IMG/VR virus record: IMGVR_UViG_3300017780_002066
Span: 1-38,384 of that record
Length of the DNA stretch: 38,384 nucleotides
DNA from: a virus
Taxonomy: Duplodnaviria > Caudoviricetes
Direction: 5' to 3' (one strand)
Below are positions 3,175 to 30,339 of this stretch, piece by piece (position 1 is the stretch's first letter; each line of letters opens with the position of its first letter). The translations under genes and the position numbers were made by a program. A model generated the notes under the pieces. The model saw only the letters and a list, made by a program, of their open reading frames with translations. It was not told where the DNA came from and searched no databases.

Positions 3175-3204
3175 AAGAGGCCTCCTTTTAGGGGGTCTTT
3201 TTTT
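3175..3204 (+). terminator. Intrinsic terminator
   Basis: AGAGGCCTCCT-TTT-AGGGGGTCTTT stem (with G-U pairs) followed by a T run. Confidence 0.8.
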
Positions 3205-3209
3205 GTTCT

Positions 3210-3282
3210 TTCCGGAAAAAAAAGTGAAAAAAAGATTGTGAGTTAGTGGCTTTTCTGCCTGATAGTTCGTATCTTAAGGTAT
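3210..3282 (+). repeat. ~70-bp promoter cassette, copy 1 (direct repeat with 3867..3939)
   Basis: TTCCGGAAAAAAAAGTGAAAAAAAGATTGTGAGTTAGTGGC...GTTCGTATCTTAAGGTAT; promoter boxes at 3246 and 3268. Confidence 0.85.
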
Positions 3283-3326
3283 GTTAGAGAGATAGATACT
3301 TTAACAGTCACTTAAAAATAAAGGTT

Positions 3327-3557
3327 ATGATGAATAAATTAAGTAGTAAAAAAGTAGTAGAGCTCGAAGCAGAGTTTGGTGAGTTTGAAATCGGTCAAGT
3401 AATGGGCGGAAGTAATAGTGTTTATCTACGCTTCGGATACTGGAGACGAGTTAACGTCGGTAAGCTTCAGGAAATGTTAGGGTTTGGTTTTAATGTTGTT
3501 GAAGACGACATCGACGATGATGATTGCGGTACTTTATATTCTTACAAATTAAAATAA
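3327..3557 (+). CDS. Hypothetical protein
   Basis: First ORF after the promoter, AAGGTTATG start. Confidence 0.75.
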   Translation: MMNKLSSKKVVELEAEFGEFEIGQVMGGSNSVYLRFGYWRRVNVGKLQEMLGFGFNVVEDDIDDDDCGTLYSYKLK

Positions 3558-3561
3558 GACT

Positions 3562-3903
3562 ATGTCAGAGAAGAGAGGTCATACAGTCAAGATTGAATAC
3601 CCATTCAATACAGCAGGAGTTATGGAGTGTTACTACCCAGATTCAGACACATGGTATAGAACTACATGTTCAGAATTTAGAGCATTTGATGGTAGAAGAC
3701 GTATAACAGAACCGGAATTTGTATCTAGACTTAATAAAGATATTCCAATGATTACAGAAGAATACTACGGACCAGTCTACCATCTAGGTACTAATACAAT
3801 AGTTGAAAGCAAAGGACTCAATATGATTGTGGGTGGTACGAAATGGCATTCAATATACGATGATCCTTCCGGAAAAAAAAGTAAAAAAAAGATTGTAAGT
3901 TAG
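3562..3903 (+). CDS. Hypothetical protein
   Basis: ORF whose C-terminus and TAG are supplied by the repeated promoter cassette. Confidence 0.7.
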   Translation: MSEKRGHTVKIEYPFNTAGVMECYYPDSDTWYRTTCSEFRAFDGRRRITEPEFVSRLNKDIPMITEEYYGPVYHLGTNTIVESKGLNMIVGGTKWHSIYDDPSGKKSKKKIVS

Positions 3904-3939
3904 TTGCTTTTCAGTGACTAAGTTCGTATCTTTAAGTAT
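3867..3939 (+). repeat. ~70-bp promoter cassette, copy 2
   Basis: TTCCGGAAAAAAAAGTAAAAAAAAGATTGTAAGTTAGTTGC...GTTCGTATCTTTAAGTAT; boxes at 3903 and 3925. Confidence 0.85.
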
Positions 3940-3977
3940 AATAAGAAATCAATTAAACAATTTAAAAAACAAAGGTT

Positions 3978-4814
3978 ATGATGCAATCATTTAACAAATC
4001 CCTCGACACATTTATGACGAAAGAAGACATCAACAAGGTATGTCCATTAGCTTTCGCTTCAGCTCCTACTAATCCAAAGGTTAGTGAGAAGTATTTACAC
4101 GTCAATACTGAGACTATTATTGACGACTTAGCTAAGTTGAACTGGTTTCCAGTTACAGCTTCTCAGAGAAAAGCTCGTAAAAAAGGAGCAGATTCTATCT
4201 TCTCTAAGCATATGATCTCTTTTCAGAATCCTGATATTATGATCAAAGGTGCTGACGGAGACGATGCTTTCCCTCGTATTATCATGACTAACTCTCATGA
4301 TGGTTTTAATTCATTCCAGTTTGCAGTCGGTATCTTCCGACTAGTATGTTCTAATGGATTAGTTATTGCTGATGAGCAATTTGCTGACTTCCGTATCCGT
4401 CACGCAGGATATACTTTCGAAGAACTTCGCGGAGTAGTATCTAAAGCAGTTAACGACTTGCCTAATAAGGTAGAGGTTCTTAACAAGATGAAGCAACGCA
4501 TCTTGACTGACGAAGAGAAGATGAAATTAGCATTAGATGCTATGACGCTTCGTTCTGGTAAGCTTGCAGAAGGTGCAGTAATCGGTTACGATGACGAGAC
4601 TCTTCGTGATATGTTAACTCCTAAGCGTACTGCTGATCAAGGAGACGATCTTTGGAAAGTGTTTAACGTAATCCAAGAGAAAGTAACTCAAGGAGGCTTC
4701 AGCGCAGCTCTTCGTGGAGCTAAAGTTCGTAAGGTTCGTAAGATCAAATCTTTCGAGAAGGACTTGAAAGTAAATAAAGAGTTGTTCAAACTAGCAACAG
4801 CATTGCTTAACTAG
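3978..4814 (+). CDS. DUF932/DUF945 family phage/plasmid protein
   Basis: IIMTNSHDG...GIFRLVCSNGLV...IRH...LWKVFNVIQE motifs. Confidence 0.85.
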   Translation: MMQSFNKSLDTFMTKEDINKVCPLAFASAPTNPKVSEKYLHVNTETIIDDLAKLNWFPVTASQRKARKKGADSIFSKHMISFQNPDIMIKGADGDDAFPRIIMTNSHDGFNSFQFAVGIFRLVCSNGLVIADEQFADFRIRHAGYTFEELRGVVSKAVNDLPNKVEVLNKMKQRILTDEEKMKLALDAMTLRSGKLAEGAVIGYDDETLRDMLTPKRTADQGDDLWKVFNVIQEKVTQGGFSAALRGAKVRKVRKIKSFEKDLKVNKELFKLATALLN

Positions 4815-4829
4815 TTAGTAAATATAAAG

Positions 4830-4857
4830 GAGCCGGACTCACCTCCGGCTCTCTTTT
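4830..4857 (+). terminator. Intrinsic terminator
   Basis: GAGCCGGA-CTCACC-TCCGGCTC perfect 8-bp stem followed by TCTTTT. Confidence 0.8.
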
Positions 4858-4868
4858 AACTTGTCTTT

Positions 4869-5036
4869 ATGCACGAAGTTTTACATATATTAGGACTATG
4901 CGGTGAAAAGCATTTAAGCTTCATCGCCTTATTTACAGACCCAACATTAACAATTGAATTATGGAAAATGAGATACTATTTTGGAAGGATGGCGACTACA
5001 CTGCAAGGGGTGGCTTCTTCGTTAGGAATAACTTAA
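4869..5036 (+). CDS. Possible small hypothetical protein (55 aa, not in ORF track)
   Basis: MHEVLHILGLCGEKHLSF...; overlaps the next ORF by 76 nt. Confidence 0.35.
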   Translation: MHEVLHILGLCGEKHLSFIALFTDPTLTIELWKMRYYFGRMATTLQGVASSLGIT

Positions 5037-5152
5037 AAGAATTTTTACAGACGTTAATCGACGCAGGTCATGAACCTGTAGGTATTAAGATCGATATGGA
5101 TAGCTTAAATTTAGAAGTAATAGTAAAAGCTACCGAGGATGAAGATAATTAG
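4961..5152 (+). CDS. Hypothetical protein
   Basis: ORF overlapping the next start. Confidence 0.65.
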   Translation: MENEILFWKDGDYTARGGFFVRNNLKEFLQTLIDAGHEPVGIKIDMDSLNLEVIVKATEDEDN

Positions 5153-5903
5153 AACCCTTTGGGGTGCTAGATATACAGAGGAAATAGAAAGAGCTACTCA
5201 GATTAGTCGAGAGTTTGGACTACTACCGGAAGATCAATTAGTATATTGCTGGGATCAAGACAACCTGGACTTTGTTCAGAAATTAGGATACCAGACTCAG
5301 TATATGGGGGACAATACAATAGGCTGGGAGGGTTGGTTTATTAATAAACTGATTGCCTTCCGCCTATCCTCTTTAACAGGGCCTTTTCTTTACTTGGACT
5401 GGGACTGTATTCAACAAAGACCTCTTGATAGTAATTTTTGGAGAAGTTTAGAAAAAGGAGAAGCTATACAAATGCCTTTGTATTACTTCCCGCAAAAAGC
5501 TATTCAAAAGTTCCAAACTATAACTCCGTTTATAGAAGAAGAAGGTTTAGAAAAGACTCATTACTTCAACCTAATGATGTATCAGATACTAAGGTACGGT
5601 AAATGGGAATATGATGGTGGATTAGCTATACCAAATGCCGGTTTTGTATACAGTAGGCAACCTTCTTTTCCTCATGATCTCTTTAAGATATTCAAAGAGA
5701 GGACTATTACAACAAACATAGAAGAGCTTTGTGCTATGCTGTATTTTAACAGGTATATACACAGTGTAGATGAGTATATAGACAAAGTTGAACCTAAGGT
5801 GTGTATAGGTAAGAGCGACGGGGATATGTGGGCGTCTCAGTATCTACTAAATAACTATATTAATTCAAAAGCTAGTAAAGATATCTACTTTATTCATGAG
5901 TGA
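5139..5903 (+). CDS. GT-A-like (DxD) nucleotide-sugar transferase-like protein, DUF6734-like
   Basis: NKL...PFLYLDWDC DxD motif; PNAGFVY; IEE. Confidence 0.55.
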   Translation: MKIIRTLWGARYTEEIERATQISREFGLLPEDQLVYCWDQDNLDFVQKLGYQTQYMGDNTIGWEGWFINKLIAFRLSSLTGPFLYLDWDCIQQRPLDSNFWRSLEKGEAIQMPLYYFPQKAIQKFQTITPFIEEEGLEKTHYFNLMMYQILRYGKWEYDGGLAIPNAGFVYSRQPSFPHDLFKIFKERTITTNIEELCAMLYFNRYIHSVDEYIDKVEPKVCIGKSDGDMWASQYLLNNYINSKASKDIYFIHE

Positions 5904-6858
5904 TTTTAAAATAATATACGTCAATTGGACTCAACCTTACTTTAATAAGAAGAAGTTTACAGGTATAAAAAGCTATCTAAAAGATACGCCGGAAGAAGCC
6001 CTTGAATATAAACTGGAAGAGTATGAAAAGCTTATGCAGATTTATAGCTTTACATCAGCTAAAAGGTATACTAATGCTTTAATAAAAATGTATACAGATA
6101 CAGCCGGGTACGAGTATTACCGTAAAGAAAATATGCTACAGTACTTTGATGAGATTGATGTAGACTTTCTTAATTCTGTTAATAAAGACACTCGTATAGA
6201 TGCAGCTCAATTTTGGACTAGCGGTAAGATACTTTCTATATGCAACGAGAAACCTCCATTTTTATTTATGGATACAGACTTCTTCTTACAGGAAGAAATA
6301 CCAGAATGGGTTTTTAAAAAAGATGTAGTACACGCCCACTGGGAACTATTACGAGCATGGTTACACGTACCGGTTAGTAAAGCTAAAGATCAATTCGGAT
6401 TAGATATTCCAGAATTTGCAGATGCAATGTTAATTCCTAACACTTGCTTCCTATTTATGAATGATAACGAAAAGGTAAGAAGTATTATAGAAAGGTATAG
6501 GGAATTACATTTAGAGATTGTAACTAAGAAATACGATTATGTACCAGACGAGTTATGGTTAATGACAGACCAGAACATACTAGGCTACATACTAAGAGAT
6601 AAGGATGCTGATGTCGGTCATGCAATTAATAAGATATATATTCAATTTGCAGACTCGGTTGGGTCTACCGCTGTCGGTAATACACCTAGATGGACACATT
6701 TTGATAATATAAAAAGGAAGTACCCAGAAGTTAAATACCATCACGTATGGTTTGAAAAGATAGGAATGCACTCTGATCCGGAATATAAAAAGACTGTAAT
6801 CGGTAACTGGACAAAAGGAATAGAAGAGAATATTAAAGTTATAAAAAGTAAATTATGA
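5896..6858 (+). CDS. DUF6734-like / GT-A-like protein
   Basis: MYTD, FWTSGKI, PFLFMDTDFF, HAHWE, PNTCFLF, TDQ, YHH motifs. Confidence 0.6.
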   Translation: MSDFKIIYVNWTQPYFNKKKFTGIKSYLKDTPEEALEYKLEEYEKLMQIYSFTSAKRYTNALIKMYTDTAGYEYYRKENMLQYFDEIDVDFLNSVNKDTRIDAAQFWTSGKILSICNEKPPFLFMDTDFFLQEEIPEWVFKKDVVHAHWELLRAWLHVPVSKAKDQFGLDIPEFADAMLIPNTCFLFMNDNEKVRSIIERYRELHLEIVTKKYDYVPDELWLMTDQNILGYILRDKDADVGHAINKIYIQFADSVGSTAVGNTPRWTHFDNIKRKYPEVKYHHVWFEKIGMHSDPEYKKTVIGNWTKGIEENIKVIKSKL

Positions 6859-7298
6859 TATATTGGTTCACAGGACAGCCTGGAGCTGGAAAGACAACTC
6901 TAGCCGATTGGTTAGCTACACATTACCATACTAAAGCTATAAAAATAGATGGTGATGATATTAGAGAGATTTTTGATAATAAAGACTACTCAGAAGCTGG
7001 AAGGAGAAAGAATATAGAGCTTGCTCAGAATATGGCTCACTTCCTCCACCATAAGGACTACAACGTTTTCGTATCGCTTGTATCACCTTATAAAGATCAA
7101 AGAGAAAGCTTTAAAGAGAAGCTAGGAAACGGTATAGTAGAACTCTACATACATGCCTTTGAAGATAGAGGACGTAATCAATTCCACGTAAGCAATTACC
7201 AACCACCTACAGAGAATTTTATAGATGTGGATACAACAAATGATAGTCCTTTTGAATCTTACCAGAAAATTAGAGAGAAGTTGGATTCTAATAATTAA
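6855..7298 (+). CDS. cysC: Adenylyl-sulfate (APS) kinase
   Basis: WFTGQPGAGKTT P-loop, IDGDDIR, YSEAGRRKNI, VSPY, YQPP. Confidence 0.88.
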   Translation: MIYWFTGQPGAGKTTLADWLATHYHTKAIKIDGDDIREIFDNKDYSEAGRRKNIELAQNMAHFLHHKDYNVFVSLVSPYKDQRESFKEKLGNGIVELYIHAFEDRGRNQFHVSNYQPPTENFIDVDTTNDSPFESYQKIREKLDSNN

Positions 7299-7314: not shown

Positions 7315-7716
7315 ATGAGCAATAAATACTTAGCTACTGCAGCATTTCAATCTTCCTCAAATGTAGTGAAGTATTCTATGTTTATAGGTAGGTGGCAACC
7401 TTGGCATGCTGGGCATCGCTGGTTGATAGATCAGAGATTAAATGAGGGTAAGAAGGTTTTACTAGCAATAAGAGATGTAGAACCTGATGAGAGAAACCCC
7501 TGGAGTGCATTCCAAGTAGCAATGAATCTTGAAGAAGAGCTATCAGATCTAATGGCAGAAGGTAAGGTTAGATTTATTATTATTCCGGATATTGAATCTG
7601 TTAATATTGGAAGAGGAGTTGGCTATGATGTAATCGAGCATATACCACCAGAAGAAGTTAGAGAGATATCTGCTACTGCTGTCCGTAATAAGATGAAAGA
7701 GGAGGGTAAGTTGTGA
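7315..7716 (+). CDS. HIGH-superfamily (cytidylyltransferase-like) nucleotidyltransferase
   Basis: FIGRWQPWHAGH (HxGH), NPW, ISATAVR. Confidence 0.8.
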   Translation: MSNKYLATAAFQSSSNVVKYSMFIGRWQPWHAGHRWLIDQRLNEGKKVLLAIRDVEPDERNPWSAFQVAMNLEEELSDLMAEGKVRFIIIPDIESVNIGRGVGYDVIEHIPPEEVREISATAVRNKMKEEGKL

Positions 7717-8263: not shown

Positions 8264-8551
8264 ATGGATATGAAAGAGATTATTACTGCCTGGATAATTA
8301 AAGCTAAGCCAAACGATAGTCAAAAGAAACTAGCAGAGGAAAGATATCAAATATGTGAACAATGTCCTGAAAGAAAAAATTTACTTAGTAACCGTAAATG
8401 GTCTGAGCACTGCGGAGAATGTGGTTGCTTATTAGAAGGAAAAGTCTTTACTCGTTCATACGATGCTTGCCCATTGCATAAATGGCTACCAGTAGAAGCT
8501 AAATATTTAAGCGAAATCTCTATAGTAAAAAAAAATAAAACAATTATATGA
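8264..8551 (+). CDS. Small Cys-rich (DUF6171-like) metal-binding protein with basic-TII tail
   Basis: RYQICEQCP...CGECGC...CPLHKW; start reassigned to 8264 (or 8270) by alignment with paralog 19087..19320. Confidence 0.7.
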   Translation: MDMKEIITAWIIKAKPNDSQKKLAEERYQICEQCPERKNLLSNRKWSEHCGECGCLLEGKVFTRSYDACPLHKWLPVEAKYLSEISIVKKNKTII

Positions 8552-9084
8552 TCCCCGGCTTAATTCAAATAGAGGACTTTTTAAAAAACGTAGATGAGAT
8601 TAGAGATCAAGCTTTGAATTTAAAGTACACCCCAGCATTCGAAGAACAAGGATGGAAAGGTTATAGATGTCTAGAACGTAATGAACTAACTACAAAGGTA
8701 ACTGAGTTAGTTAAAGCAGAGTTATCTAAACGAGATGATAAGTTTACTACTGCGGACTACGATTGCTACTTTCATTACACATTACAAAATACTGTAAAAG
8801 AAAAAGGATATTATAAAAACCGTATACATAAAGACCGTCTTAAAGATTACGCAGGAGTTATCTACTTAGCTACAAATCCTATTTCTAATTCTGGAACAGC
8901 TTTTTACGATGAAAACTATATTCAGGTAGCTGAAAGTAAAAATAAATACAATACACTAGTATGTTACCCGGCTAATGTTAACCATGGAATACAAGAACCG
9001 TTTGGGGACTCAAAAGAAAATGGTAGATTGACTTTCACAATTTTTATTGGATTTAAACAGAAGCAATCTAAAACGTTAATATGA
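8548..9084 (+). CDS. 2OG-Fe(II) oxygenase (DUF6445-like)
   Basis: IHKD...YAGVIYL...GTAFY...YNTLVCY...HG...RLT: HxD...H triad plus Arg. Confidence 0.8.
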   Translation: MIPGLIQIEDFLKNVDEIRDQALNLKYTPAFEEQGWKGYRCLERNELTTKVTELVKAELSKRDDKFTTADYDCYFHYTLQNTVKEKGYYKNRIHKDRLKDYAGVIYLATNPISNSGTAFYDENYIQVAESKNKYNTLVCYPANVNHGIQEPFGDSKENGRLTFTIFIGFKQKQSKTLI

Positions 9085-9692
9085 TAACAATCCAGCAATA
9101 TAAAATATCAGATACACTTTCTGTTTATAAGGCTAAGTACGACTGGGAGTATGGACGAGACGAGATCGCATATAGAGTAAAGCAAAACAAATGGCTCTTA
9201 GGTACAACAGACTTTAATACAACTGAAATAAAAGTTAGAAGCGCTGAAATTGACTCTGTAATAGATTACGGAGTACGTATTGCAATGAAGCTATCAGGAA
9301 TAGATACCCTACATGATCGAGCTTGGACAGGAAAGACTTGGAGCTATATTCAAGATAAAAACTCGCAAGATCCTGAAAAAGGATTTCATGTTCATACATC
9401 TACTATTAACTTTCCAGATACTAGAGTAAATGCACCAATACTAACAGATTGGACCTATTGCTTTTATCTACAAGTACCTGATGACTTAAAAGAAAACGAA
9501 GGAAGTTTACTTCTAAAAGATAAGAGTAGTAAGGTTTATGCTATAAAGCCAGAAGAAGGAGATTTTATCTTCTTTAAAGGAGATGTAGAACATAGGCCAA
9601 AACTAGCTCCTAATTCAAAAGGAGTTAGAATAGCCATCTGCTCTAATATTAGCTTTAATATAACAGAAATTAAAAGTGGTAATATACGATAA
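9081..9692 (+). CDS. Putative 2OG-Fe(II) oxygenase
   Basis: FHVH...CFYLQVP...PEEGDFIFF...EHRP...RIAICSNI. Confidence 0.75.
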   Translation: MITIQQYKISDTLSVYKAKYDWEYGRDEIAYRVKQNKWLLGTTDFNTTEIKVRSAEIDSVIDYGVRIAMKLSGIDTLHDRAWTGKTWSYIQDKNSQDPEKGFHVHTSTINFPDTRVNAPILTDWTYCFYLQVPDDLKENEGSLLLKDKSSKVYAIKPEEGDFIFFKGDVEHRPKLAPNSKGVRIAICSNISFNITEIKSGNIR

Positions 9693-10128
9693 TTTATTTC
9701 CGGAAGACTTTTTCGAAGCTATTAAAGTAGAAGGTAAGTATTCTATTGAAGAGGGTCAACAAGACTGTTACAGATTTCGTACCCTTCCTGGTGAATTTGC
9801 AGTAGGTGTAGAGAATTTTCTACTAGGAGTAGGAGTAGAACATCAAGGAGATAAGATGATTATTAGTAAAAGACCTACAGGCTTTATAACAAAGTATAGC
9901 CGGTTTCTAGACGAAAATTTCTCTGTCTTTGTCTATTTTATAAATGAAAATTACACAGGAGGTGAACTTATGTACGAGAAACAAGTAATTAAACCTTTAC
10001 AGAATAGAGGAATATACTTTGACAATATAGATAAATTTGAACTGACAACAGTAACAGAAGGTACCCAGTACATACTAATATCTTATTTTAGAAAAAATAC
10101 AATAAAACAGAAAAAGACACTAATATAA
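9676..10128 (+). CDS. Degenerate prolyl-hydroxylase-like 2OG-Fe(II) oxygenase fold
   Basis: VYFINENYTGGELMY...IKP...VTEGTQY; metal-binding His residues absent. Confidence 0.6.
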   Translation: MVIYDNLFPEDFFEAIKVEGKYSIEEGQQDCYRFRTLPGEFAVGVENFLLGVGVEHQGDKMIISKRPTGFITKYSRFLDENFSVFVYFINENYTGGELMYEKQVIKPLQNRGIYFDNIDKFELTTVTEGTQYILISYFRKNTIKQKKTLI

Positions 10129-10188: not shown

Positions 10189-12117
10189 ATGAAAGCTGTT
10201 TTAATAGGAAGTGATTTCTTACTTGATAACGACGGAAATGCAAAACTGGTAGAATTTAATACCAGCGCTGGAGCCTTCCAAAGTATGGTACCTCACTTAG
10301 ATTTTACTGAATTAGAAAACCTTTTACAGGTAAACTCTATAGCAGAGCTTGTTTATATCTTCAATGACGAACAGGTAGTTACGGACCCTAGCTTTAGAGC
10401 AAATATTACAATTGGTAGCGACTTGCAGAATCTCTGCTCAAATCTTGGCATTACCTACACACCCTACCAGGTAAATACGTATTCAACCACAGTACCGTAT
10501 ATTGAGGATAGCCCTACAAAGTTTATACTAAGACAAGCGTTTGATTCAACAGCTTTAATAGATGACGAGTATTGTGCAGATAAAGCAAACTTACAGGTCC
10601 TAATTAAAGATGAATCTTATGCAATACCTACATATATTAATAATCCTGGATACGAACTGAATACGTTAACAACATATAACGAAAATACTACACCAAATAT
10701 TGTAGTTAAGTCTAGACTTCCTCAATACGATGCTAAGGTATACCCGGAAGTACACTCTATAGGTAGCCAAGCAGATTTAGATAACTTAAAGCAAAATACA
10801 ACACATCCTTATTTTATACAAGAGTTTGTTAATTCAACTAATAACGTAAAAGAGGGAAGATATTGTATTATTAGAAGTCTTGATTTAGTATACGGAGCAA
10901 ACTTAGATACTATGCATTTAGGTTCATACCACCAGTCCTCACAATACGCTTTGGATATATGGCCGGATGAACTTCAAGCGAACTCGACTGCCTTAACAAA
11001 TAAATCTAGAGTTAAATGGATTTCTAAGTTAGCAACTGACGAGCAGAAAGGTATATACCATATCGACGAAGACACTAAAATTATAACCGGCACCGGAGCT
11101 TATATAACAATCGATCAAGTAGAACAAGGTACAGTAGTTAAGTCTGCTAACTTTAGTAATTTTCCTACAGGATCTACAGTTAATGTATTTGCATATTCTT
11201 CTTCTTTCCAAGAGATGCAAGACTCCTTAGAAGTTAATACAGCAACAGTAGTAGGCTTTAAAAGTTCAAGCTTAGAAACAGTTTACATAAATGTAACTTT
11301 AGATAGCGGTATTAATTGGGATGACTCTACAAGATCAACTTTTTATACAGAAGATAGCGGAAGTTTAATTACACGTTTTAGATCCTTAGGTCAAGCTAGT
11401 TTAGGAGATAAAGTTATTCTTTTAGATGTTAGCTCAAATGAACTTGTAAAGCAAGAAATAACTGCATTAGAAGCTGTGTACGATACGAAGATAACATATG
11501 AAATGGATGTTGAGGAGCAGGATATATTCTTATCACTTTTAGATGAGGATACTAACATAGCGTTAGTTCAACATAACCCATGTTGGTGCGAAGGATGGAA
11601 TTGCGGGTATTATAGCTGTTATAACTCCTGTGCTGGATGTGGCGGCGGAGGCTGTTTTATCGGAGAAGCAATGGTTACAACACCAGACGGCCAGAAAGAA
11701 ATAAAAGATATTGAAATCGGAGATATAGTTCAATCCTATGATTTTGTTAAAAACGAACTTGTTACAAAGAGAGTAAAAGGATTATGGAAATCTGATTATA
11801 ATAATAAGTTAGTAATAATAAACGGAATAAAAACTAAAGCAACAATAGGACATCCATTTGCGATAAAAGATTTTGAAGGAAATGTAAACTGGGCAGCTGT
11901 AGATCCGAAAGCAGATAAAGAATTCCATAAAGACTATGAAGTCTATCAATTAGAGACTGGTAAATATTTTATTAACCTTATGGGTGATTGGGTAATTGTA
12001 GATTCTATCGAATTTGAAGATTTTAAAGGTATAGTTTACAATATATCAGTTGAAGATACTCATAACTACGTAGCAGAAGGTCTCTTAGTTCATAACATGG
12101 CGAAAAAATTTCAATAA
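10189..12117 (+). CDS. Circularly permuted ATP-grasp - Hint - Cys-rich peptide - Hint fusion (putative autoprocessing precursor)
   Basis: GSDFLLDNDGNAKLVEFN precedes DK, IVVKS, FIQEFV; Hint1 HIDEDTKIIT...TYEMDVE...VQHN; peptide; Hint2 CFIGEAMVTT...ATIGHPF...VYNISVEDTHNYVAEGLLVHN. Confidence 0.8.
   Translation: MKAVLIGSDFLLDNDGNAKLVEFNTSAGAFQSMVPHLDFTELENLLQVNSIAELVYIFNDEQVVTDPSFRANITIGSDLQNLCSNLGITYTPYQVNTYSTTVPYIEDSPTKFILRQAFDSTALIDDEYCADKANLQVLIKDESYAIPTYINNPGYELNTLTTYNENTTPNIVVKSRLPQYDAKVYPEVHSIGSQADLDNLKQNTTHPYFIQEFVNSTNNVKEGRYCIIRSLDLVYGANLDTMHLGSYHQSSQYALDIWPDELQANSTALTNKSRVKWISKLATDEQKGIYHIDEDTKIITGTGAYITIDQVEQGTVVKSANFSNFPTGSTVNVFAYSSSFQEMQDSLEVNTATVVGFKSSSLETVYINVTLDSGINWDDSTRSTFYTEDSGSLITRFRSLGQASLGDKVILLDVSSNELVKQEITALEAVYDTKITYEMDVEEQDIFLSLLDEDTNIALVQHNPCWCEGWNCGYYSCYNSCAGCGGGGCFIGEAMVTTPDGQKEIKDIEIGDIVQSYDFVKNELVTKRVKGLWKSDYNNKLVIINGIKTKATIGHPFAIKDFEGNVNWAAVDPKADKEFHKDYEVYQLETGKYFINLMGDWVIVDSIEFEDFKGIVYNISVEDTHNYVAEGLLVHNMAKKFQ
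11059..11577 (+). other. Hint domain 1 (residues 291-463), N-terminally inactive
   Basis: Aligns to the Hint2 N-terminus with His in place of Cys1; no TxxH; ends YEMDVEEQDIFL...VQHN. Confidence 0.65.
11578..11652 (+). other. 25-aa six-Cys core peptide PCWCEGWNCGYYSCYNSCAGCGGGG
   Basis: Lies exactly between the His-Asn of Hint1 and Cys1 of Hint2. Confidence 0.65.
11653..12096 (+). other. Hint domain 2 (residues 489-636), intein/BIL-like, no endonuclease
   Basis: Cys1, block B TIGH, block F VYNISVE, terminal HN; +1 residue is Met. Confidence 0.9.
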
Positions 12118-12118
12118 T

Positions 12119-12232
12119 ATGGCAAATATAATAAAAACGGTAGTTATTCCTACAACACCAGAAGTAGATTTAAAAGTAAAAAATGTAGTAGAATCGATAC
12201 TAGCGCTAATTAGAGCTAAGCATCTATCGTAG
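12119..12232 (+). CDS. Small hypothetical protein (37 aa, not in ORF track)
   Basis: MANIIKTVVIPTTPEVDLKVKNVVESILALIRAKHLS; starts 1 nt after the precursor stop. Confidence 0.65.
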   Translation: MANIIKTVVIPTTPEVDLKVKNVVESILALIRAKHLS

Positions 12233-12249: not shown

Positions 12250-12954
12250 ATGTTAGTTGATAATAAGTTTTTGTTTCTAAAGATACCAAGAACAGCTACA
12301 GTAGCATTTGAACGTTCCTGCTTTTTAGCAGGACTTTCTATTAAATACCCTGCCGATAATGTCTTAGCACAAAGACAGGCAGATAAAGGAATTGAACCGT
12401 ATCGACATGCTCACCATCCTGTATCTAAACTTCGAGAATATTTTGGTAACGATTACCCTATTGTAGCAATAACTAGAGATCCTTTAGAAAGGTTTTTATC
12501 TGCCTGGAAGTATACTATTAAACATATTGCAGAAACTAATCCTGAAATATCCAAAGCACTTGAAAAAGTAACTAGTAAGCAGTTTATAAATGCTTGGCAC
12601 TCTGAAATAGGGTACATCGATAATCTTAAGGATATAGAGAAAGCTTCAAATTTTTTTAGGAGACTACTTAAAGGAGGAATTCCTTATAGTAAGAATATTT
12701 TTATGATATTCACTACTGTAATAACAGGGGCTACAAGGTGGCATGAAAACGACCCAAGTATTCTTTACTTTGATATCAAAGATTTAAAAAGTTTAGAAGA
12801 ATATACTAGAGAGGTAACAGGCAAACCCTTTGAACTTATATCAACAAACGATACAGAATTAGTATATACGGATTTAAAAATTGACGAGGAGTTAAAAGAT
12901 TTTTACTTTAAGTTAATAGAACCTCTTTACAAGACTCAAAATACTTTGATATAA
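12250..12954 (+). CDS. Sulfotransferase (Sulfotransfer_2-like)
   Basis: FLKIPRTAT 5'-PAPS loop; RDPLERFLSAW 3'-phosphate motif. Confidence 0.8.
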   Translation: MLVDNKFLFLKIPRTATVAFERSCFLAGLSIKYPADNVLAQRQADKGIEPYRHAHHPVSKLREYFGNDYPIVAITRDPLERFLSAWKYTIKHIAETNPEISKALEKVTSKQFINAWHSEIGYIDNLKDIEKASNFFRRLLKGGIPYSKNIFMIFTTVITGATRWHENDPSILYFDIKDLKSLEEYTREVTGKPFELISTNDTELVYTDLKIDEELKDFYFKLIEPLYKTQNTLI

Positions 12955-13019: not shown

Positions 13020-14552
13020 ATGAAAAAAATAGTTATATTAGGAGGAGGAACAGCAGGCTGGTTAACAGCTCTATATGCAAAACATCTTTTTGATAAAGCA
13101 GAAGTTACATTAGTAGAAAGTTCAGAAATAGGAATATTAGGCGCTGGGGAAGGATCAGTACCCTTATTACCCCTTTTCCTACAGACTCTAGGGATACCTC
13201 TAGGAGAGTTTAAGAGAGAGGCCCACGCCACTTTCAAAACGGGTATTAGGTTTACTAACTGGAAAGGAGATGGTACAAGCTACTTACACCCTTTTACAGC
13301 ACCTCCTGGTTCTACTTTAGATTTTCAAACAATACATTCTCTAGGATTTAATCATGCAAAGAAAATACCTAATACTAATAAAGCATACTACATCCTTAAT
13401 GCACTAGCAAATAAAGAAGACTTAGAAGAAGTAATACCAACAAATGTATTAGTTAATAACCAGAAGAGCCCATTTTATACAGAAGATAATAAAACACTAA
13501 CCTCCTCAGGTTATTCCTTTCACTTTAATGCCCGTAAGGCAGCTATATACTTAGCAAAAGTTGGGGAGAGTAGAGGTATTAAGAGAGTTGATTCAAAACT
13601 TACAAAGATCTCTTCTAAAGAAGACGGAACGATTACTTCAATAGAACTTAAAAATAAACAAATTTTAGATTTAGATTTTATATTTGACTGTAGCGGCTTT
13701 AGTAGACTCCTTATAGGTAACTTCTATAAAACAGAATGGATTTCCTATAAGAAATACCTTACAACAGATTCAGCAGTACCCTTCTTTATACCCCATAAAG
13801 AAAAAATAGTACGTCCAGAAACAAACTGTATTGCTATGAAGCATGGCTGGATGTGGCAGATACCGGTAAAACATAGATGGGGGATGGGTTACTCTTTCGA
13901 TAGTAACTACATAACTCCTGAACAAGCTTATGATGAAATTGAAGAAGTATTAGGACATCCTATAGAAAGGTTAGGTAAAGTATTTCAATTTAATGCCGGA
14001 AGGTATAAAGATGTTTGGGTTAAGAATTGTATGGCAGTTGGTTTGAGCTCTGGATTTGTGGAGCCTTTAGAAGCCACCTCGTTAATGATTGCAATCATGC
14101 AACTAATTAACTTAGATACATCTATGATAGTAGAAAATAATAAAGAAGATACAGATCAATATAACAAAGCTATTGCATTGTTAAACCACGAAGTGATGTG
14201 CTTCTTATATTACCACTTTAGTACAATAAGAGAAGATACTCCGTTTTGGAAAAACTATAAAGACAAGACTAATGTACCGCCAGGATTAGATAAGATGTTA
14301 AAAATATGGGAAAGAAGAAATCCTAAAGATTTAGATTTATTTGAACTAACAGGAGGAGCAGTTTTTGGTATCTATAGCTGGTACATAGTAGGAGCAGGAA
14401 ATGGAACGCTTAATATGGAACTTATAGAAAAAGAAAATAAACTTTTAGGTTTAGATGAAAAATTAAAACCCTTTAAAGATAAATTAAAAAAATACCTAAA
14501 AGAAGTTGTTGATAACTCTATAGATAATATACAGATTCAACATGGAGATTAG
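13020..14552 (+). CDS. Flavin-dependent tryptophan halogenase family protein
   Basis: GGGTAG, GAGEG, ATFKTGIRF (catalytic Lys), WMWQIP (WxWxIP), GFVEPLEATS. Confidence 0.92.
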   Translation: MKKIVILGGGTAGWLTALYAKHLFDKAEVTLVESSEIGILGAGEGSVPLLPLFLQTLGIPLGEFKREAHATFKTGIRFTNWKGDGTSYLHPFTAPPGSTLDFQTIHSLGFNHAKKIPNTNKAYYILNALANKEDLEEVIPTNVLVNNQKSPFYTEDNKTLTSSGYSFHFNARKAAIYLAKVGESRGIKRVDSKLTKISSKEDGTITSIELKNKQILDLDFIFDCSGFSRLLIGNFYKTEWISYKKYLTTDSAVPFFIPHKEKIVRPETNCIAMKHGWMWQIPVKHRWGMGYSFDSNYITPEQAYDEIEEVLGHPIERLGKVFQFNAGRYKDVWVKNCMAVGLSSGFVEPLEATSLMIAIMQLINLDTSMIVENNKEDTDQYNKAIALLNHEVMCFLYYHFSTIREDTPFWKNYKDKTNVPPGLDKMLKIWERRNPKDLDLFELTGGAVFGIYSWYIVGAGNGTLNMELIEKENKLLGLDEKLKPFKDKLKKYLKEVVDNSIDNIQIQHGD

Positions 14553-14928
14553 TAAATTTACACTTGTAGTAATTAAAGGAAGAGGTACTGGGGTTTTCTC
14601 AAATGTTTACCTTAACGCAGAAGATTTAGTAGGTACTTATGTAGAAAATAAACCTAATAGAATAGGGAGAAAACTCACAGGCACTTTATGGGAAGCTGAC
14701 CCTTTAGGTAGATTCTGTAACCACAGTGAACGTCCTAACGCTACGTTAGTACAAACTGAAACTGGATACAATCTATACGCTAATAGACCTATTGATAAAG
14801 GCGACGAAATTACGGTTAGTTACCATGTAGTAGAATTTAAACTAGGACGACCTAAAGGTGAGTATTATAAGCCAGGCTTTACAGATAAGATTTACACTAA
14901 ATTCGGCAAGTCAGTATGCGAATATTAA
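14542..14928 (+). CDS. SET domain methyltransferase
   Basis: GRGTGVF, RFCNHSERPNA, ANRPIDKGDEITVSY. Confidence 0.88.
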   Translation: MEISKFTLVVIKGRGTGVFSNVYLNAEDLVGTYVENKPNRIGRKLTGTLWEADPLGRFCNHSERPNATLVQTETGYNLYANRPIDKGDEITVSYHVVEFKLGRPKGEYYKPGFTDKIYTKFGKSVCEY

Positions 14929-15479
14929 TCTACGCTCTACCTAGAACAGGTTCTAACAACCTTACACATTATATAGCAAATTCTCTACACTATAAAGAAA
15001 TTATAGAACCTTATAACGAAAATCGGTTTTGGGACAAAGACTTAACTGAGTTTGATATTTGGGAAAGAGATAACGTAGTAGTCAAAATGATGCTTGAACA
15101 AGGAGAAGAGAAATATAAAGACGTATCTGCTAAATTTGATAAAACAGTTATAATATATAGAGAGAATATTATTGAACAAGCAGAAAGTTTTGTTCATGCT
15201 ACCAAGTCTATTGATTGGCATGCTCCCTATGTATACGACCCATCTAAAGTAGATCAGAATGAGTATTTAGAAACTCTAGATAAATTTAATAGCCGTTTAG
15301 AAAACATTAAAAGCTACAACCACTTTACAGTAACTTACGAAAACCTATATCTTTCTGGAATAGATAGAGATAGGGTAGATGAGTATATAGGTATAACTAA
15401 TAAATCATTTCGCTTTATGCTTGATAGTCGAAATAAGTACAGAAAGAGTAGCGTAGAGGAAAAGAGAACTCTAATATAG
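14916..15479 (+). CDS. Sulfotransferase (Stf0-like P-loop)
   Basis: ALPRTGSNNL, EPYN, YRENIIEQAES, TYENL. Confidence 0.72.
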   Translation: MRILIYALPRTGSNNLTHYIANSLHYKEIIEPYNENRFWDKDLTEFDIWERDNVVVKMMLEQGEEKYKDVSAKFDKTVIIYRENIIEQAESFVHATKSIDWHAPYVYDPSKVDQNEYLETLDKFNSRLENIKSYNHFTVTYENLYLSGIDRDRVDEYIGITNKSFRFMLDSRNKYRKSSVEEKRTLI

Positions 15480-26995: not shown

Positions 26996-28174
26996 ATGAA
27001 GATAGTCCATAGTTACATTCCTACTGCCTTTGGCGATAAACCAGCCCCAGATCTTATTTGGAAGGAGTTAATGTATGGTCAGATGTTAAGCGTATTACTA
27101 GCTCAAAGGGAGTTTGGTAATATTAGCTTATATACAAACGAACATATAGCTCGTCAGATAAAAGATATAGGCATACCTTATACAGATATTAATACATCAG
27201 TACTAGAAGGAGTAAGTAGTAAAAGCTACACTTACCCTAAGATGAGAGTATTTAGAGAGATAGGAGAACCTTATCTTCATATCGATACAGATACTTTTGT
27301 CTTTAAGAAGCTAGACTTTAGTAAAAGTAAAAGCCCAGTAGTATATGCTCACTCAGATCAAGCTGTAGAATTTAAAGAGAAGGTTGATTCAGATGTACTA
27401 AGCCGGTATATTAATAATATTTCAAAATGCTATACTAGTCTATTCTTTTTGCATGATGATGAGTTAAAGTCATTTAACCCTCCTAATGTTAACTTAATGA
27501 AGATACCTAACGGTAATCTAACCTATGTTAGAGACCCTAAACTCTTTATTGAAGCAACTAATAAAGCATTAACGTACTACTACAAGCATAAGGATATTAT
27601 CGATAGAAATACTTACGGAGGAGTTTATGTAGAGCAGATGATTATACATTTGTACCTAATGGAGCTAAGTCCGGAGTATAAAGAAGCAGTAGATGAAAAT
27701 AAACATTTGGTGTGTGATAATATCTTTATGCATATAGATTATGGCTGTAAAGATAATACTACAGACTATCTTAATTACAACTTTCCTTTCAAGTTTAAAT
27801 TACATACCCTAAAGGACGGTTATATCTCAGAACTAGAAGAGGCTAAAAAAGTAGCTAGCAACTTAGGGTTTAAATTAGAGAAAGATGTTTATAAAGAGTA
27901 TACAATAGAGAACAAAGAAGACTTAGTTAAATACTTTAGTCACGATTTCTTAGGAGTATTACACCCAAGCTTTAATAAATGGGCTCCTATTTTTGAATGT
28001 TTAGCTATTGGAGCAATAGTAGAGCAATTTGGTCCGGAGTATGTTAGAAATGTACACAACTTTTATACACATTCATGGGATAGGTATCAACTAAATTTAG
28101 AACCTTATTCTAGAGGAGAGAAATTATATGCTGACATTACAGGATTTAAGTTTAAAGAATCAGGAATCATATAG
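26996..28174 (+). CDS. DUF6734-like / GT-A-like protein
   Basis: LYTN, YPKM, PYLHIDTDTF, YAHSD, PN, VEQ; same motif order as 5896..6858. Confidence 0.65.
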   Translation: MKIVHSYIPTAFGDKPAPDLIWKELMYGQMLSVLLAQREFGNISLYTNEHIARQIKDIGIPYTDINTSVLEGVSSKSYTYPKMRVFREIGEPYLHIDTDTFVFKKLDFSKSKSPVVYAHSDQAVEFKEKVDSDVLSRYINNISKCYTSLFFLHDDELKSFNPPNVNLMKIPNGNLTYVRDPKLFIEATNKALTYYYKHKDIIDRNTYGGVYVEQMIIHLYLMELSPEYKEAVDENKHLVCDNIFMHIDYGCKDNTTDYLNYNFPFKFKLHTLKDGYISELEEAKKVASNLGFKLEKDVYKEYTIENKEDLVKYFSHDFLGVLHPSFNKWAPIFECLAIGAIVEQFGPEYVRNVHNFYTHSWDRYQLNLEPYSRGEKLYADITGFKFKESGII

Positions 28175-28816
28175 ATGAAAGACAACGTAGTTATATCTTT
28201 AGTAGGAGTTAATAGTTACCATGTAAGTAACTGTGTAAGCACCTATAGGTTTTTACAAGAAGAAGGCTATACAGTAAAGGTATTAACTAACCGTCAAGAC
28301 TTATTTGACCCGGTAGATGTTTACGTATATAAGAGAAAGATCTTTACATACTTAGATAAACTTTTATACTGTTTAGATTTAGTCGAAGAATATAAATGTA
28401 GTGTCTTATACTTAGATTCTGATAAGTACTATCCCTACCATCAGATAAAAAGCTTTATAGAAAGATCACAACAACATCAGATAACCTATCAAGGTAGCTG
28501 GCCAGGAGGTAATTTTGATGCTTATAGAGATGTTAACCCATGCTTTAAATACCTAAAAGAGTATTGTGAGTATAAAGGAATAGAATATAAGAATTGGGAA
28601 ACAATGTGGGAATATGTAATGTTTTTTAGAGATGATATAGACTATGAAGCAATAAGATATGAGTTAGAAACAATAGCCCCAGTCTTTACTTATATGTCTT
28701 TAATGAACAACGACACTTATAATAAGACGCCCTTTGCATTAGGAGGAGCAGAAGGATTAGCATTGAGTATAGTATTAGATAAATTAGGAATTGAATCACA
28801 CGAAATTTTAATATAA
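28175..28816 (+). CDS. GT-A-like (DxD) protein
   Basis: VLTN, FTYLDKL, LYLDSD, AEG. Confidence 0.55.
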   Translation: MKDNVVISLVGVNSYHVSNCVSTYRFLQEEGYTVKVLTNRQDLFDPVDVYVYKRKIFTYLDKLLYCLDLVEEYKCSVLYLDSDKYYPYHQIKSFIERSQQHQITYQGSWPGGNFDAYRDVNPCFKYLKEYCEYKGIEYKNWETMWEYVMFFRDDIDYEAIRYELETIAPVFTYMSLMNNDTYNKTPFALGGAEGLALSIVLDKLGIESHEILI

Positions 28817-28999: not shown

Positions 29000-29167
29000 A
29001 TGGATAATACAATCAAATGTGAATGCTGTCAGAGTGTAATAGACTTAGACGATACCGATTGGTGCGATAAATGCGATAGAAGTATCTTTGATGAGAGCCC
29101 TTGTAAGGTATCAGAGAAGACAAGTGATTATATGTACAACTGGATTAGAGAGAAGTCCGGAAAGTAG
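29000..29167 (+). CDS. Small zinc-ribbon-like protein (55 aa, not in ORF track)
   Basis: MDNTIKCECCQSVIDLDDTDWCDKCDRS... Confidence 0.65.
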   Translation: MDNTIKCECCQSVIDLDDTDWCDKCDRSIFDESPCKVSEKTSDYMYNWIREKSGK

Positions 29168-29174
29168 GCGAAGT

Positions 29175-29216
29175 GGGGGCGCCTTATCCTCTCCGACGAA
29201 GTCGACCCGCGCAAAT
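29175..29216 (+). repeat. C-GAA-G hairpin + CGCGCA element, copy A
   Basis: GGGGGCGCCTTATCCTCTC-CGAC-GAA-GTCG-ACC-CGCGCA. Confidence 0.7.
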
Positions 29217-29228
29217 TTAACAAGTGTT

Positions 29229-29804
29229 ATGAGCAAACTACATTTCTACCCAAATCTAACCCCAAGAGAGGTTATAAAGAGAGGAGCCTTTGGAGGCTGC
29301 TACTTCGGCTTTCCTATAGAAGAAGATACTAACTTCGAATATCAGGAGCTATTTGATTATCATTTTAAAGACTTAGATACAAATCTATACTTAGGAGAGA
29401 CCTATAAGCCTAAATTGAATAAGTTTACGGTTAGATCAGGTATGGATTATGAGTATTGGAAGGCTATGAATTGGATGCATGAGAGAGATCCTTATGGATG
29501 GTTTGAGTGGTGGTGTAAATACGAGATGGGTATAAGAGGCGAAGATGATGATAGGCAGATTAGTAGATGGCAGGACTTTACGGGTATGACCGGAAGATGG
29601 CGCCATAGAATCTATAGCATGATATATACAACAAAGGATTGGGATTCATCTCCACGTATACAGCAATCGTTATTACATTGGGGTTATGAGGTTAATAGAG
29701 AGGACTATAGACAATGGTGTTCCAGTAACTATAAGACATTAGAAGACGATGAATGGTGTCATTATGGAGGATTACCATCACCTAAGGCCTATATGACGTA
29801 TTAG
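29229..29804 (+). CDS. Conserved hypothetical protein (DPYGWFxW family)
   Basis: PNLTP...GAFGG...DPYGWFEWWC...DDDRQISRW; start reassigned to GTTATG at 29229. Confidence 0.75.
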   Translation: MSKLHFYPNLTPREVIKRGAFGGCYFGFPIEEDTNFEYQELFDYHFKDLDTNLYLGETYKPKLNKFTVRSGMDYEYWKAMNWMHERDPYGWFEWWCKYEMGIRGEDDDRQISRWQDFTGMTGRWRHRIYSMIYTTKDWDSSPRIQQSLLHWGYEVNREDYRQWCSSNYKTLEDDEWCHYGGLPSPKAYMTY

Positions 29805-29838
29805 TAGAATAGATATAGAGAGAGGGTCGGAGGGGGGA

Positions 29839-29880
29839 GGGGGCCTTTATCCCTCTCACCGAAGGTGTCCCGCGCATATT
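29839..29880 (+). repeat. C-GAA-G hairpin + CGCGCA element, copy B
   Basis: GGGGGCCTTTATCCCTCT-CACC-GAA-GGTG-TCC-CGCGCA. Confidence 0.7.
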
Positions 29881-30339
29881 GTCCGACCTTTCCTACCATA
29901 AGGAATATAGGACGGCCTTATAAGAGTTCTTTGACATATTGGAGAGTATAATACGCAATCTAAGGAGATAACTGGATATAGATATAAACGGGTTCTGAGA
30001 GTGTATGACTTGGGTGACTACTTGGTATAAGGTTACAAGAGATAATCGGAGATAACCAATCTATCTAAGTGAGAACCATAAGCAATCCACCTTCATTACC
30101 ATAACGTCTATTAAGAAAGATATATGTATATACCTATAGGTTTATATGATTATATGTTTATATGGATATATAAGAGGTTGTGTAGAATAAACAGAGTATA
30201 GCGTAGTAAGGGTAGAATAGGAAGTAAATGCCCCTTTTTGCCCAGGGGACCAACTTTTCCTATAGAAATCTTTCCAGAGTACGGGCAACTATTTCCACGA
30301 CTTTATTTCCATATATAGTGAAATAAATACCCCAAAAGG

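Follow-up and report, generated by a model that had tools for sequence, protein, structure and literature searches.

What product is made by a viral gene in which a Cys-rich peptide lies between two intein-like Hint domains? The question is raised by a 642-residue open reading frame (ORF) on a 38-kb viral contig from lake water (Duplodnaviria; Caudoviricetes; IMG/VR record IMGVR_UViG_3300017780_002066), the whole of which, positions 1 to 38,384, constitutes the window analyzed here. A preliminary description of this gene, made from its sequence, proposed that the two Hints form a matched pair resembling the engineered TWIN system, with Hint1 freeing the N-terminus of a 25-residue peptide and Hint2 activating its GGGG end for hydrolysis, cyclization or transfer. 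The residues that it named in Hint1, Hint2 and the six-Cys spacer are all present in the translation. It covered the two Hints and the peptide and omitted residues 1-290 of the same protein, thereby overlooking a fused ATP-grasp ligase domain; the conserved Lys tail that follows Hint2 was overlooked as well. These two features argue for re-joining rather than release at the Hint2 junction, and the earlier interpretation is only partly supported. We instead see about an even chance that the protein, which reads ligase, Hint1, Cys peptide (hereafter the cargo), Hint2 and Lys tail, is a self-processing fusion of an enzyme with its precursor, in which Hint2 would rejoin the cargo to the Lys tail, neighboring gene products would decorate it, Hint1 would release it and the ligase would couple it. 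Hint2 would then be an optional, self-removing insert in the cargo tail, and not half of a matched release pair.

Anatomy of the protein and its family

The ligase-Hint family is virus-restricted. The full protein found 158 homologues at E<=0.001 and residues 1-463 found 264 representatives at 50% identity; viral scans confirmed 212 and 105 stretches, and Atlas look-alikes were unnamed clusters that are 96-100% viral. A search of 185,579 prokaryote genomes returned one match (L241), on a 5-kb contig of an archaeal metagenome-assembled genome, which is probably a misbinned viral fragment. We gathered 462 distinct sequences, of which 432 passed a filter for the ligase and for length and 417 were parsed, in a sample biased by the queries. 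The constant unit of the family comprises the ligase, Hint1, its His-Asn and the cargo. Extra Hints after Hint1 are variable: none was found in 181 of the parsed members, one in 110, two in 110 and three in 16. Rows of three or four Hints are common, with spacers of 0-7 residues within the arrays. For the 236 members with an extra Hint, the spacer is Cys-rich in 80 and only 0-2 residues long in 138.

Residues 1-463 have no match in Pfam, PHROG, NCBIfam or PDB sequences, and these libraries likewise fail to place the ligase in the permuted ATP-grasp family at the level of sequence. An AlphaFold2 model of residues 1-488 (without Hint2) reached a mean predicted local distance difference test (pLDDT) score of 88.6; for residues 1-290 the model pLDDT was 94.2. 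As modelled, residues 1-290 adopt the circularly permuted ATP-grasp fold of the YgiC/YjfC/glutathionylspermidine synthetase (GspS)/glutathione synthetase kind. A VIA search ranked YgiC (7UKA; Z 9.8, root-mean-square deviation (rmsd) 4.1, 201 residues aligned) and GspS (2IO7; Z 8.8) ahead of glutathione synthetases and Cp1B, with the ten best rows all belonging to the permuted group; alignments to unpermuted ATP-grasps begin only near residue 50, and the graspetide enzymes 7MGV and 7M4S scored Z 4.5 and 3.8. Foldseek agrees on the permuted fold (1M0W, E 3e-6). Across 124 distant rows (the query plus 123 representatives of at least 430 residues, from 150 listed), in which relatives share 24-46% identity, residues D9, E22, N24, R115, D125, K174 and R229 are kept in 121-123. 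From the motifs of GspS, D9, E22, N24, K174 and R229 are candidates for the Asp, Glu-x-Asn, Lys and Arg that bind metal and ATP.

The ligase gene is followed, two bases past its stop, by the start of a 37-residue ORF. A small ORF occupies this position in 78 of 79 loci, the remaining locus ending 124 bases on, and in a distant clade an ORF of 35-60 residues does so in 78 of 80 loci, giving 156 of 159 loci overall. The 37-residue ORF is shorter than the usual gene-calling length cut-offs and has no match in the sequence libraries searched. Complex prediction of the ligase with this protein scored 0.84, compared to 0.01 for the best of three controls; among solved complexes 116 of 157 attain the score mark used, and among mismatched pairs 2 of 215 do. 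At least 94% of contacts are common to the runs, the partner pLDDT is at least 87, and the models predict that the 37-residue protein binds the ligase. Since the predicted contacts involve alternate residues of the main sheet and exclude D9, E22, N24, K174 and R229, the partner may serve as a small structural subunit or as an activator. Alignment of the ligase model to YgiC begins at YgiC residue 94, leaving about 90 N-terminal residues absent, and the partner may stand in for part of that block.

Hint1 opens with His291 and ends in His462-Asn463. It has no match in Pfam, PHROG or NCBIfam, and its Hint fold was assigned with Foldseek: at the top of the list for the 1-488 model stood inteins, BIL2 and the hedgehog Hint, with TM-scores of 0.7-0.82 over the target. 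Among them was 3IFJ, at E 6e-8, rmsd 2.8 and a TM-score of 0.80 over the target, and a viral structure library gave the same assignment. The expectation of two Hint folds was thus borne out, for Hint1 by structure and for Hint2 by Pfam and PDB sequence matches. The end-to-end alignment of residues 291-463 with Hint2 that had first suggested the fold was not recovered; profile-profile comparison gave a probability of 72% over just 42 columns (residues 393-434 against Hint2 positions 10-52), and 0.2% for a control pairing the N-terminal region with Hint2.

Conservation of Hint1 is concentrated at its C-terminal end. His291, Asp293 and Asp445 are nearly invariant among close members, with His at position 1 in 117 of 121, and position 1 drifts in distant ones, where it is never Cys, Ser in 10 and Thr in 5 of the 124 rows (the alignment being uncertain here); TxxH occurs in 2. 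The terminal His-Asn is present in 121/121 close members and in 115 and 120 of the 124 distant rows, among the best-kept positions of the entire protein in distant relatives. Because position 1 drifts while His-Asn is kept, Hint1 appears to be selected for C-terminal cleavage alone, and its sequence predicts a cut only at its C-terminus, after Asn463, as the preliminary description had anticipated. Asn463 would probably cyclize and so free the cargo, perhaps slowly owing to the Pro that follows.

The intein classes were considered separately. A class 1 assignment of Hint1 was ruled out by the lack of Cys/Ser at position 1 and of TxxH. Class 2/3 was ruled out by the +1 residue, which is Pro here and, among 172 close members, never Cys, Ser in 37 and Thr in 6, together with the lack of Cys at position 438 in the 124 rows.

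Between the Hints, the cargo carries Cys at positions 465, 467, 472, 477, 481 and 484. It begins with Pro, is abundant in Trp, Tyr, Gly and Ser, and has no ordered fold in the model (pLDDT <50 for residues 466-488). In the query's clade and close relatives its Cys are 99-100% identical, compared to 36-54% for the other residues, confirming the earlier suggestion that the peptide varies around fixed Cys. The 172 close proteins hold 157 distinct cargos, with six Cys in 156 and eight in 14, and 22 patterns of Cys number and spacing. Trp and Tyr occur together in 166 of the 172; Trp is found in 0 of 54 Cys-less cargos. The residue that Hint1 would free is Pro, Ser or Gly among others, and never Cys in the close members. 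Family-wide, cargos range from six- or eight-Cys peptides through Cys-rich stretches of more than 100 residues to four- or five-residue lysine peptides; those of distant members span 20 to >100 residues, and other members have no Cys peptide. A fixed Zn-binding linker was rejected as an account of the Cys-rich stretch, the cargo being terminal or absent in most relatives.

These data bear on a rather improbable alternative, according to which the cargo is a metal-binding Cys tail that stays on the ligase, Hint1 is structural and does not cut, and extra Hints are tolerated, self-removing passengers that multiplied in a tail permissive to them. Consistent with it, the six Cys are nearly invariant in the query's clade, extra Hints come and go in arrays of up to three, and Hint1 has Asp in place of the block-F His and Pro at its +1 position in 81 of 172 close members (65 of 77 members of the query type). 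Pro at +1 is reported to block engineered inteins, an effect on which our searches returned no paper. These last features count against release by Hint1 as we propose it, and Pro464 is the weakest link of the preferred model: either the altered site of Hint1 tolerates it, or cutting is slow and serves as a timer, or the cargo is never detached. Retention of the terminal His-Asn while position 1 drifts is hard to reconcile with a structural Hint1, and a metal site fits poorly with variable Cys number and spacing and with a peptide for which no ordered fold is predicted.

Some relatives differ at the Hint1 junction or in the size of the cargo. In P0151, P0156, P0179, P0187 and P0209 the terminal His of Hint1 is replaced (Tyr, Ser or Asn precedes the last residue), possibly reflecting loss or change of cleavage. 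In 40 of the 236 members with an extra Hint (e.g., P0215, P0245, P0246, P0270, P0279, L095 and L097) the His-Asn of Hint1 directly adjoins Cys1 of the next Hint, which places Cys at +1. The distant members P0141, P0144-P0148, P0155-P0157 and P0166 bear Cys-rich cargos of 60 to >150 residues, several ending in an S74-like chaperone.

The Hint2 junction and the lysine tail

Hint2 retains the residues expected of an active domain. It opens with Cys489, carries TIGH at 552-555 and ends in His635-Asn636, followed by Met637. Pfam recognizes it as Intein_splicing (E 3e-10) and PT-HINT (5e-7), both above cut-offs, and NCBIfam intein models also pass; among PDB sequences it is closest to BIL2 of Tetrahymena (6TMM/6Y75, E 7e-13) and then to a C. 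thermocellum bacterial intein-like (BIL) domain (2LWY, E 2e-9). Cys1, Thr552, His555, His635 and Asn636 are intact in 71/71 sequences, and TxxH is present in 377 of 378 extra Hints across the family. Like A-type BIL domains, Hint2 combines Cys1, TxxH and His-Asn with the lack of an endonuclease and of a +1 nucleophile, the +1 residue being V, M, F, I, A, K, N or P in 77/77. It lies in a hypervariable region, but of a viral family and not of bacterial proteins. Its flanks are a 25-residue peptide and a 6-residue tail with no Pfam match to ubiquitin, unlike those of BUBL loci.

Hint2 is stably inherited in the query's clade, being found in 75 of 76 tree members and co-diverging with the core (r 0.92, 71 sequences), apart from P0070, which carries another Hint lineage. 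This protein, encoded at 3178-5094 of locus L006, belongs to the query's clade and has lost the Cys peptide, and its Hint2 is 32% identical to that of the query and 56% to that of L079. Close copies of Hint2 are almost confined to the ligase family (117/118 and 54/54), and weaker matches (L117-L160) resemble ordinary inteins in other genes, as judged from their N-termini and C-flanks. In four large related phage records no copy was found with the query's Hint2, a search that lacked a positive control and shows little.

The element that persists is a Lys behind Hint2. In close members without Hint2, a Lys follows the last Cys in 89/89, compared to 32% expected from composition and length. The 77 close members that bear Hint2 have no Lys before it, and all 77 have one after it (28% expected). 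When Hint2 is removed on paper, the distance from the last Cys to Lys peaks at 6-7 (54 of 76), as it does in the forms without Hint2 (64 of 89). Family-wide, Lys lies no more than 5 residues past the last extra Hint in 229 of 230 members, a count from which six members with further Hints were set aside as mis-cut in parsing. Gain or loss of Hint2 accounts for nine changes on a 40-row tree, at least seven of them forced by strong branches; P0121, which falls in the query's clade (support 98-99), is without Hint2 and has kept the Lys tail. That tree labelled P0200 as Hint-less, and Pfam shows a Hint without His-Asn there. An S74-like chaperone stands in for Hint2 in 13 members, 10 of which have Lys immediately ahead of the putative cut; the S74 label was above the Pfam cut-off in one of five proteins tested and below it in one more, and for the remainder it is a tentative label from a Ser-Asp-x-x-x-Lys motif. 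The three architectures (Hint2, Hint2-less and S74) would thus converge on a cargo that ends near Lys, provided that Hint2 rejoins its flanks.

The tail behind Hint2 also holds an additional lysine. Among 201 Cys-cargo members (those of the 417 with a cargo of up to 45 residues and no S74), at least two tail Lys are present in 77/77 with Hint2 and in 1 of 124 without it, and 6/6 phylogenetically independent pairs agree with this rule (sign test, p 0.031). By analogy with the Lys isopeptides of BIL2, one tail lysine may be consumed in the Hint2 reaction.

How would such a reaction proceed? Cys489 would, with high probability, form a thioester with Gly488. Cyclization of Asn636 and uptake of the thioester by the tail, joined either way, is reasonably likely. 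A tentative route is capture by the alpha-amine that Met637 would then expose, and the outcome would be an ordinary chain of 31 residues, like that left by A-type BIL splicing; doubtful, and modelled on BIL2, is capture by the side chain of Lys639 or Lys640, which would yield an isopeptide. PMC4031507 describes A-type BIL domains that cleave at both ends and can ligate their flanks by aminolysis, through the freed alpha-amine and without a +1 nucleophile. PMC8616854 reports that BIL2 makes Lys isopeptides and can move its upstream domain onto the lysine of another protein.

The anatomy, both folds (as models), conservation and gene linkage are in hand, and the reaction steps are inferred from them. 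Several observations weigh against re-joining. Lengths across Hint2 do not compensate (rho -0.09, p 0.42), so the restored spacing may be inherited and not selected. Lys or Arg occupies +1 of 261 of the 378 extra Hints, and the extra lysine may simply be a basic residue carried along by the Hint module or of use to it. The extra-lysine rule fails in the Cys-less clade, where two extra Hints go with a single Lys in 72 members, and 27 of 168 cargos without an extra Hint, all distant, have no Lys in their last six residues. Cleavage products predominate for A-type BILs (PMC4031507), and the review PMC7765530 holds that these domains cannot ligate their flanks.

Predominant cleavage is what the TWIN-like scheme would predict, in which Hint1 frees the N-terminus, the Hint2 thioester leads to a 25-residue peptide that is hydrolyzed, cyclized or transferred, and the tail is discarded. 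Conservation of Cys1 and TxxH in 71/71, stable inheritance of Hint2, transfer to another protein's lysine by BIL2 (PMC8616854), and Gly as the commonest residue at -1 of Hint2 all agree with it. That Gly is nevertheless found in only 32 of 77, and the proposed GGGG end is not conserved. A waste tail would not need to keep His-Asn in 71/71 and two Lys in 77/77, and a matched pair for excision or cyclization is at odds with the 181 of 417 members that have no second Hint and with the 138 of 236 whose spacer is 0-2 residues. The freed residue is never Cys, which makes TWIN ligation chemistry unavailable, and the fused ligase is left unexplained. We regard this scheme as quite unlikely.

An extension of the re-joining model, which we advance with considerable doubt, is a Hint assembly line in large phages. 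The thioester of each intact Hint would be captured by the Lys or alpha-amine of the next piece, and a cargo would be put together from two to four separately encoded parts, with branches at lysine in members of the query's clade. Halogenation and sulfation would take place on the tethered cargo, which would then be freed by the C-cleaving Hint and conjugated by the ligase to a virion or host protein. If true, this would be the first viral class of modifiers resembling ubiquitin or ribosomally synthesized and post-translationally modified peptides (RiPPs) and a natural case of lysine-based splicing, and it would name natural substrates of phage halogenases and sulfotransferases. Four Hints occur in a row in L087 (694-3408), L107 (220-2961), L108, L115, P0268, P0272 and P0362, with one- or two-residue separators that are typically first x-Pro, next Arg-x and last Lys-x, with Lys after the final Hint. 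Among six short cargos without an extra Hint, none begins Ala/Asn/Ser-Pro-Arg, as an unsplit counterpart of the poly-Hint cargos would. In L082, L091, L092, L093 and L104, short Cys-less cargos carry Arg-Gly-Gly or Arg-Gly right before the Hint Cys1, an ending that resembles the ubiquitin C-terminus.

Genes of the island and the fate of the cargo

The features of the gene and of the surrounding island are summarized in Table 1.

Table 1. Features of the ligase-Hint gene and its neighbors in the window.
Feature	Position	Strand	Evidence or occurrence
APS (adenylylsulfate) kinase	6855-7298	+	In 26/80 loci
Nucleotidyltransferase-like gene	7315-7716	+	In 34/80 loci
Small six-Cys protein with tag	8270..8551	+	phrog_13558, E 3e-9; 73/80 loci; tag in 49/51 distinct sequences
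DUF6445 (2OG-Fe(II) oxygenase-like) protein with tag	8548..9084	+	Pfam
2OG-Fe(II) oxygenase, no tag in this copy	9081..9692	+	Pfam, PHROG
2OG-Fe(II) oxygenase with tag	9676..10128	+	Pfam
Whole gene: ligase, Hint1, Cys peptide, Hint2, Lys tail	10189..12117	+	ORF, 642 aa
ATP-grasp ligase fold, residues 1-290	10189..11058	+	Structure model, fold matches, conservation
Hint1, residues 291-463; predicted C-terminal cut only	11059..11577	+	Model, Foldseek, conservation
Cargo, residues 464-488, 25 aa, six Cys	11578..11652	+	Sequence, conservation
Hint2, residues 489-636, A-type BIL-like	11653..12096	+	Pfam, NCBIfam, PDB sequence matches
Tail, residues 637-642 and stop, Lys639-Lys640	12097..12117	+	At least 2 Lys in 77/77 tails after Hint2
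Unannotated 37-aa ORF with C-terminal His-Leu motif; small ligase subunit (predicted)	12119..12232	+	Position in loci, complex prediction
Sulfotransferase with tag	12250..12954	+	Pfam Sulfotransfer_2; beside Cys-rich cargo only, among loci examined
Flavin-dependent tryptophan halogenase	13020..14552	+	Pfam, E 2e-106; beside Trp-bearing Cys cargo only, among loci examined
SET-domain protein (probable lysine methyltransferase)	14542..14928	+	Pfam SET, E 3e-10
Second sulfotransferase-like protein with tag	14916..15479	+	Family in 60/80 loci

Across 80 loci the island contains 2-oxoglutarate (2OG)-Fe(II) oxygenases in 79, a sulfotransferase in 72 and a tryptophan halogenase in 59. The APS kinase and nucleotidyltransferase-like gene likely supply the sulfate donor 3'-phosphoadenosine 5'-phosphosulfate (PAPS). 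The second sulfotransferase-like protein has no significant Pfam or PHROG match, and its label is a tentative one from an N-terminal motif. A gene-encoded, variable core peptide that clusters with tailoring enzymes corresponds to the RiPP-like setting that had been proposed for this locus, and halogenase, sulfotransferases and oxygenases are indeed nearby.

As a measure of linkage, loci whose flanks extend to 9 kb or more (13.8 kb on average in either group) were compared between 34 with a Cys cargo and 44 without Cys, from a total of 159 loci of which 112 are distinct. The halogenase was found in 27 of 34 Cys-cargo loci and 0 of 44 Cys-less loci, one sulfotransferase family in 33 and 0, and the small Cys protein in 32 and 5, respectively. 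Oxygenases were present in 34/34 and 41/44; hidden Markov models gave 34 and 38 for these and agreed on the counts of the other three families. In L006, where the Cys peptide is lost, halogenase and sulfotransferases are absent between conserved flanking genes. We slightly favor the view that enzymes with a common C-terminal tag would halogenate and sulfate the Trp and Tyr of the cargo before its release. Three points speak against this. The halogenase contrast amounts to one clade split plus L006 only, the DNA retrieved for 7 of the 34 Trp-bearing loci contains no halogenase, and oxygenases (41/44) and tagged genes remain beside cargos of few residues, so these enzymes may have other substrates.

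The tag consists of Ser/Thr and two hydrophobic residues fixed at the very C-terminus, and resembles a class I PDZ-binding motif. It is present in 54/54, 49/51, 47/53 and 87/117 distinct sequences of four families, compared to 14 of 471 other genes. Five of the 16 listed window genes (those ending at 8551, 9084, 10128, 12954 and 15479) carry it as Thr-hydrophobic-Ile on different folds.

The last step of the preferred model concerns the ligase. Asp and Glu make up 1.6% and 0.3% of cores, 64 of 172 cargos have neither, and the last cargo residue is variable (16 different residues); in many members, therefore, the carboxylate must come from outside. By analogy with its fold relatives, there is an even prospect that the ligase makes an acyl phosphate of a carboxylate and joins it to the remaining free Lys or to the new N-terminus. 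Candidate acyl partners would be a virion or host protein, a tagged protein or a small acid. According to PMC12568646, YgiC/YjfC couple peptides to the alkylamine of the polyamine spermidine, and the lysine side chain would resemble the alkylamine used by enzymes of this type.

The same requirement for an outside carboxylate, together with the peptide-to-polyamine coupling just cited, can be read as protein conjugation, with the ligase activating the C-terminal tag of neighbors or other phage proteins and coupling it to cargo Lys, and with the cargo serving as a ubiquitin-like handle. The strictly C-terminal position of the tag, as an acyl donor requires, and its persistence beside minimal cargos are in line with this reading. 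On the other hand, the tag may equally be a docking or degradation signal, and the halogenase and one sulfotransferase family track the Trp/Tyr-rich cargo, which fits the cargo as substrate. We judge conjugation of this kind unlikely, and keep to the self-processing fusion, in which the neighbors act on the cargo.

Relation to known systems

The closest parallels to Hint2 lie in two groups of intein-like domains. With the A-type BIL domain 2LWY it shares Cys1, TxxH, His-Asn and the lack of Cys/Ser/Thr at +1; it differs in belonging to a phage, within the tail of a 25-residue cargo and always before lysine. The BUBL polyubiquitin-like locus of Tetrahymena, source of BIL2 (6TMM, 6Y75), likewise has several Hints per chain. 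In the present family, however, there are no ubiquitin-like domains, what lies upstream is either a Cys-rich peptide or a spacer of 0-7 residues, and an ATP-grasp and a C-cleavage-only Hint are fused in front.

E. coli YgiC/YjfC, GspS, eukaryotic glutathione synthetase and fungal Cp1B share with residues 1-290 the permuted fold and, putatively, an N-terminal Asp...Glu-x-Asn metal motif, at 12-16% identity and without the fused Hint and cargo found here. The Arg that GspS has two residues before the first Asp is Gly/Ser/Ala here. Graspetide and pheganomycin-type ligases are ATP-grasp enzymes that act on a ribosomal peptide through Lys or an N-terminal amine; they are unpermuted and stand alone, and graspetide cores supply their own Asp/Glu. 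A graspetide assignment was rejected, many cores having no acidic donors and the precursor being fused to the enzyme. Borosins such as omphalotin (OphMA) also combine modifying enzyme and core peptide in one polypeptide, but there the enzyme is a methyltransferase and a separate protease effects release, whereas here an ATP-grasp and a self-cutting Hint are present. Engineered TWIN constructs place a target between a C-cleaving Hint and a thioester-forming Hint, with the second Asn disabled and an N-terminal Cys used. The query retains Asn636, has a Lys tail after Hint2 and would expose Pro on release by Hint1, and neither an obligate Hint pair nor an N-terminal Cys nor a C-terminally inactive second Hint was found.

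We found no description of this system in the open-access literature searched. The joining of a ligase, a C-cleavage-only Hint, a hypervariable cargo and Hints before a conserved Lys is new as a combination, although its parts are known separately, and no Pfam, PHROG or NCBIfam family covers it. With 264 clusters at 50% identity, the family is common in aquatic phages. If the self-processing model is correct, viruses make or attach modified peptides without a protease, and the flavin-dependent halogenases, sulfotransferases and 2OG oxygenases of phages would have in the cargo a candidate for their natural substrate. Natural tools would follow as well, in the form of a Hint possibly cutting before proline and Hints possibly splicing without Cys/Ser/Thr.

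Some observations concern the wider sequence context. Freshwater metatranscriptome contigs contain the stretch, and 8 of 24 listed runs hold at least half of its words. In four runs, coverage extends to 25-30 of 30 bins along the full 16 kb, so DNA carry-over is possible and the coverage is weak as evidence of RNA. Pairs of glycosyltransferase-like genes lie at 5139-6858 and 26996-28816 (with one DUF6734 match), outside the tagged set; in 5-6 loci the first pair is again found ahead of the island. Finally, a 238-residue ORF is found at 29088-29804, where the region 29001-30000 has a G+C content of 41%, compared to about 34%.

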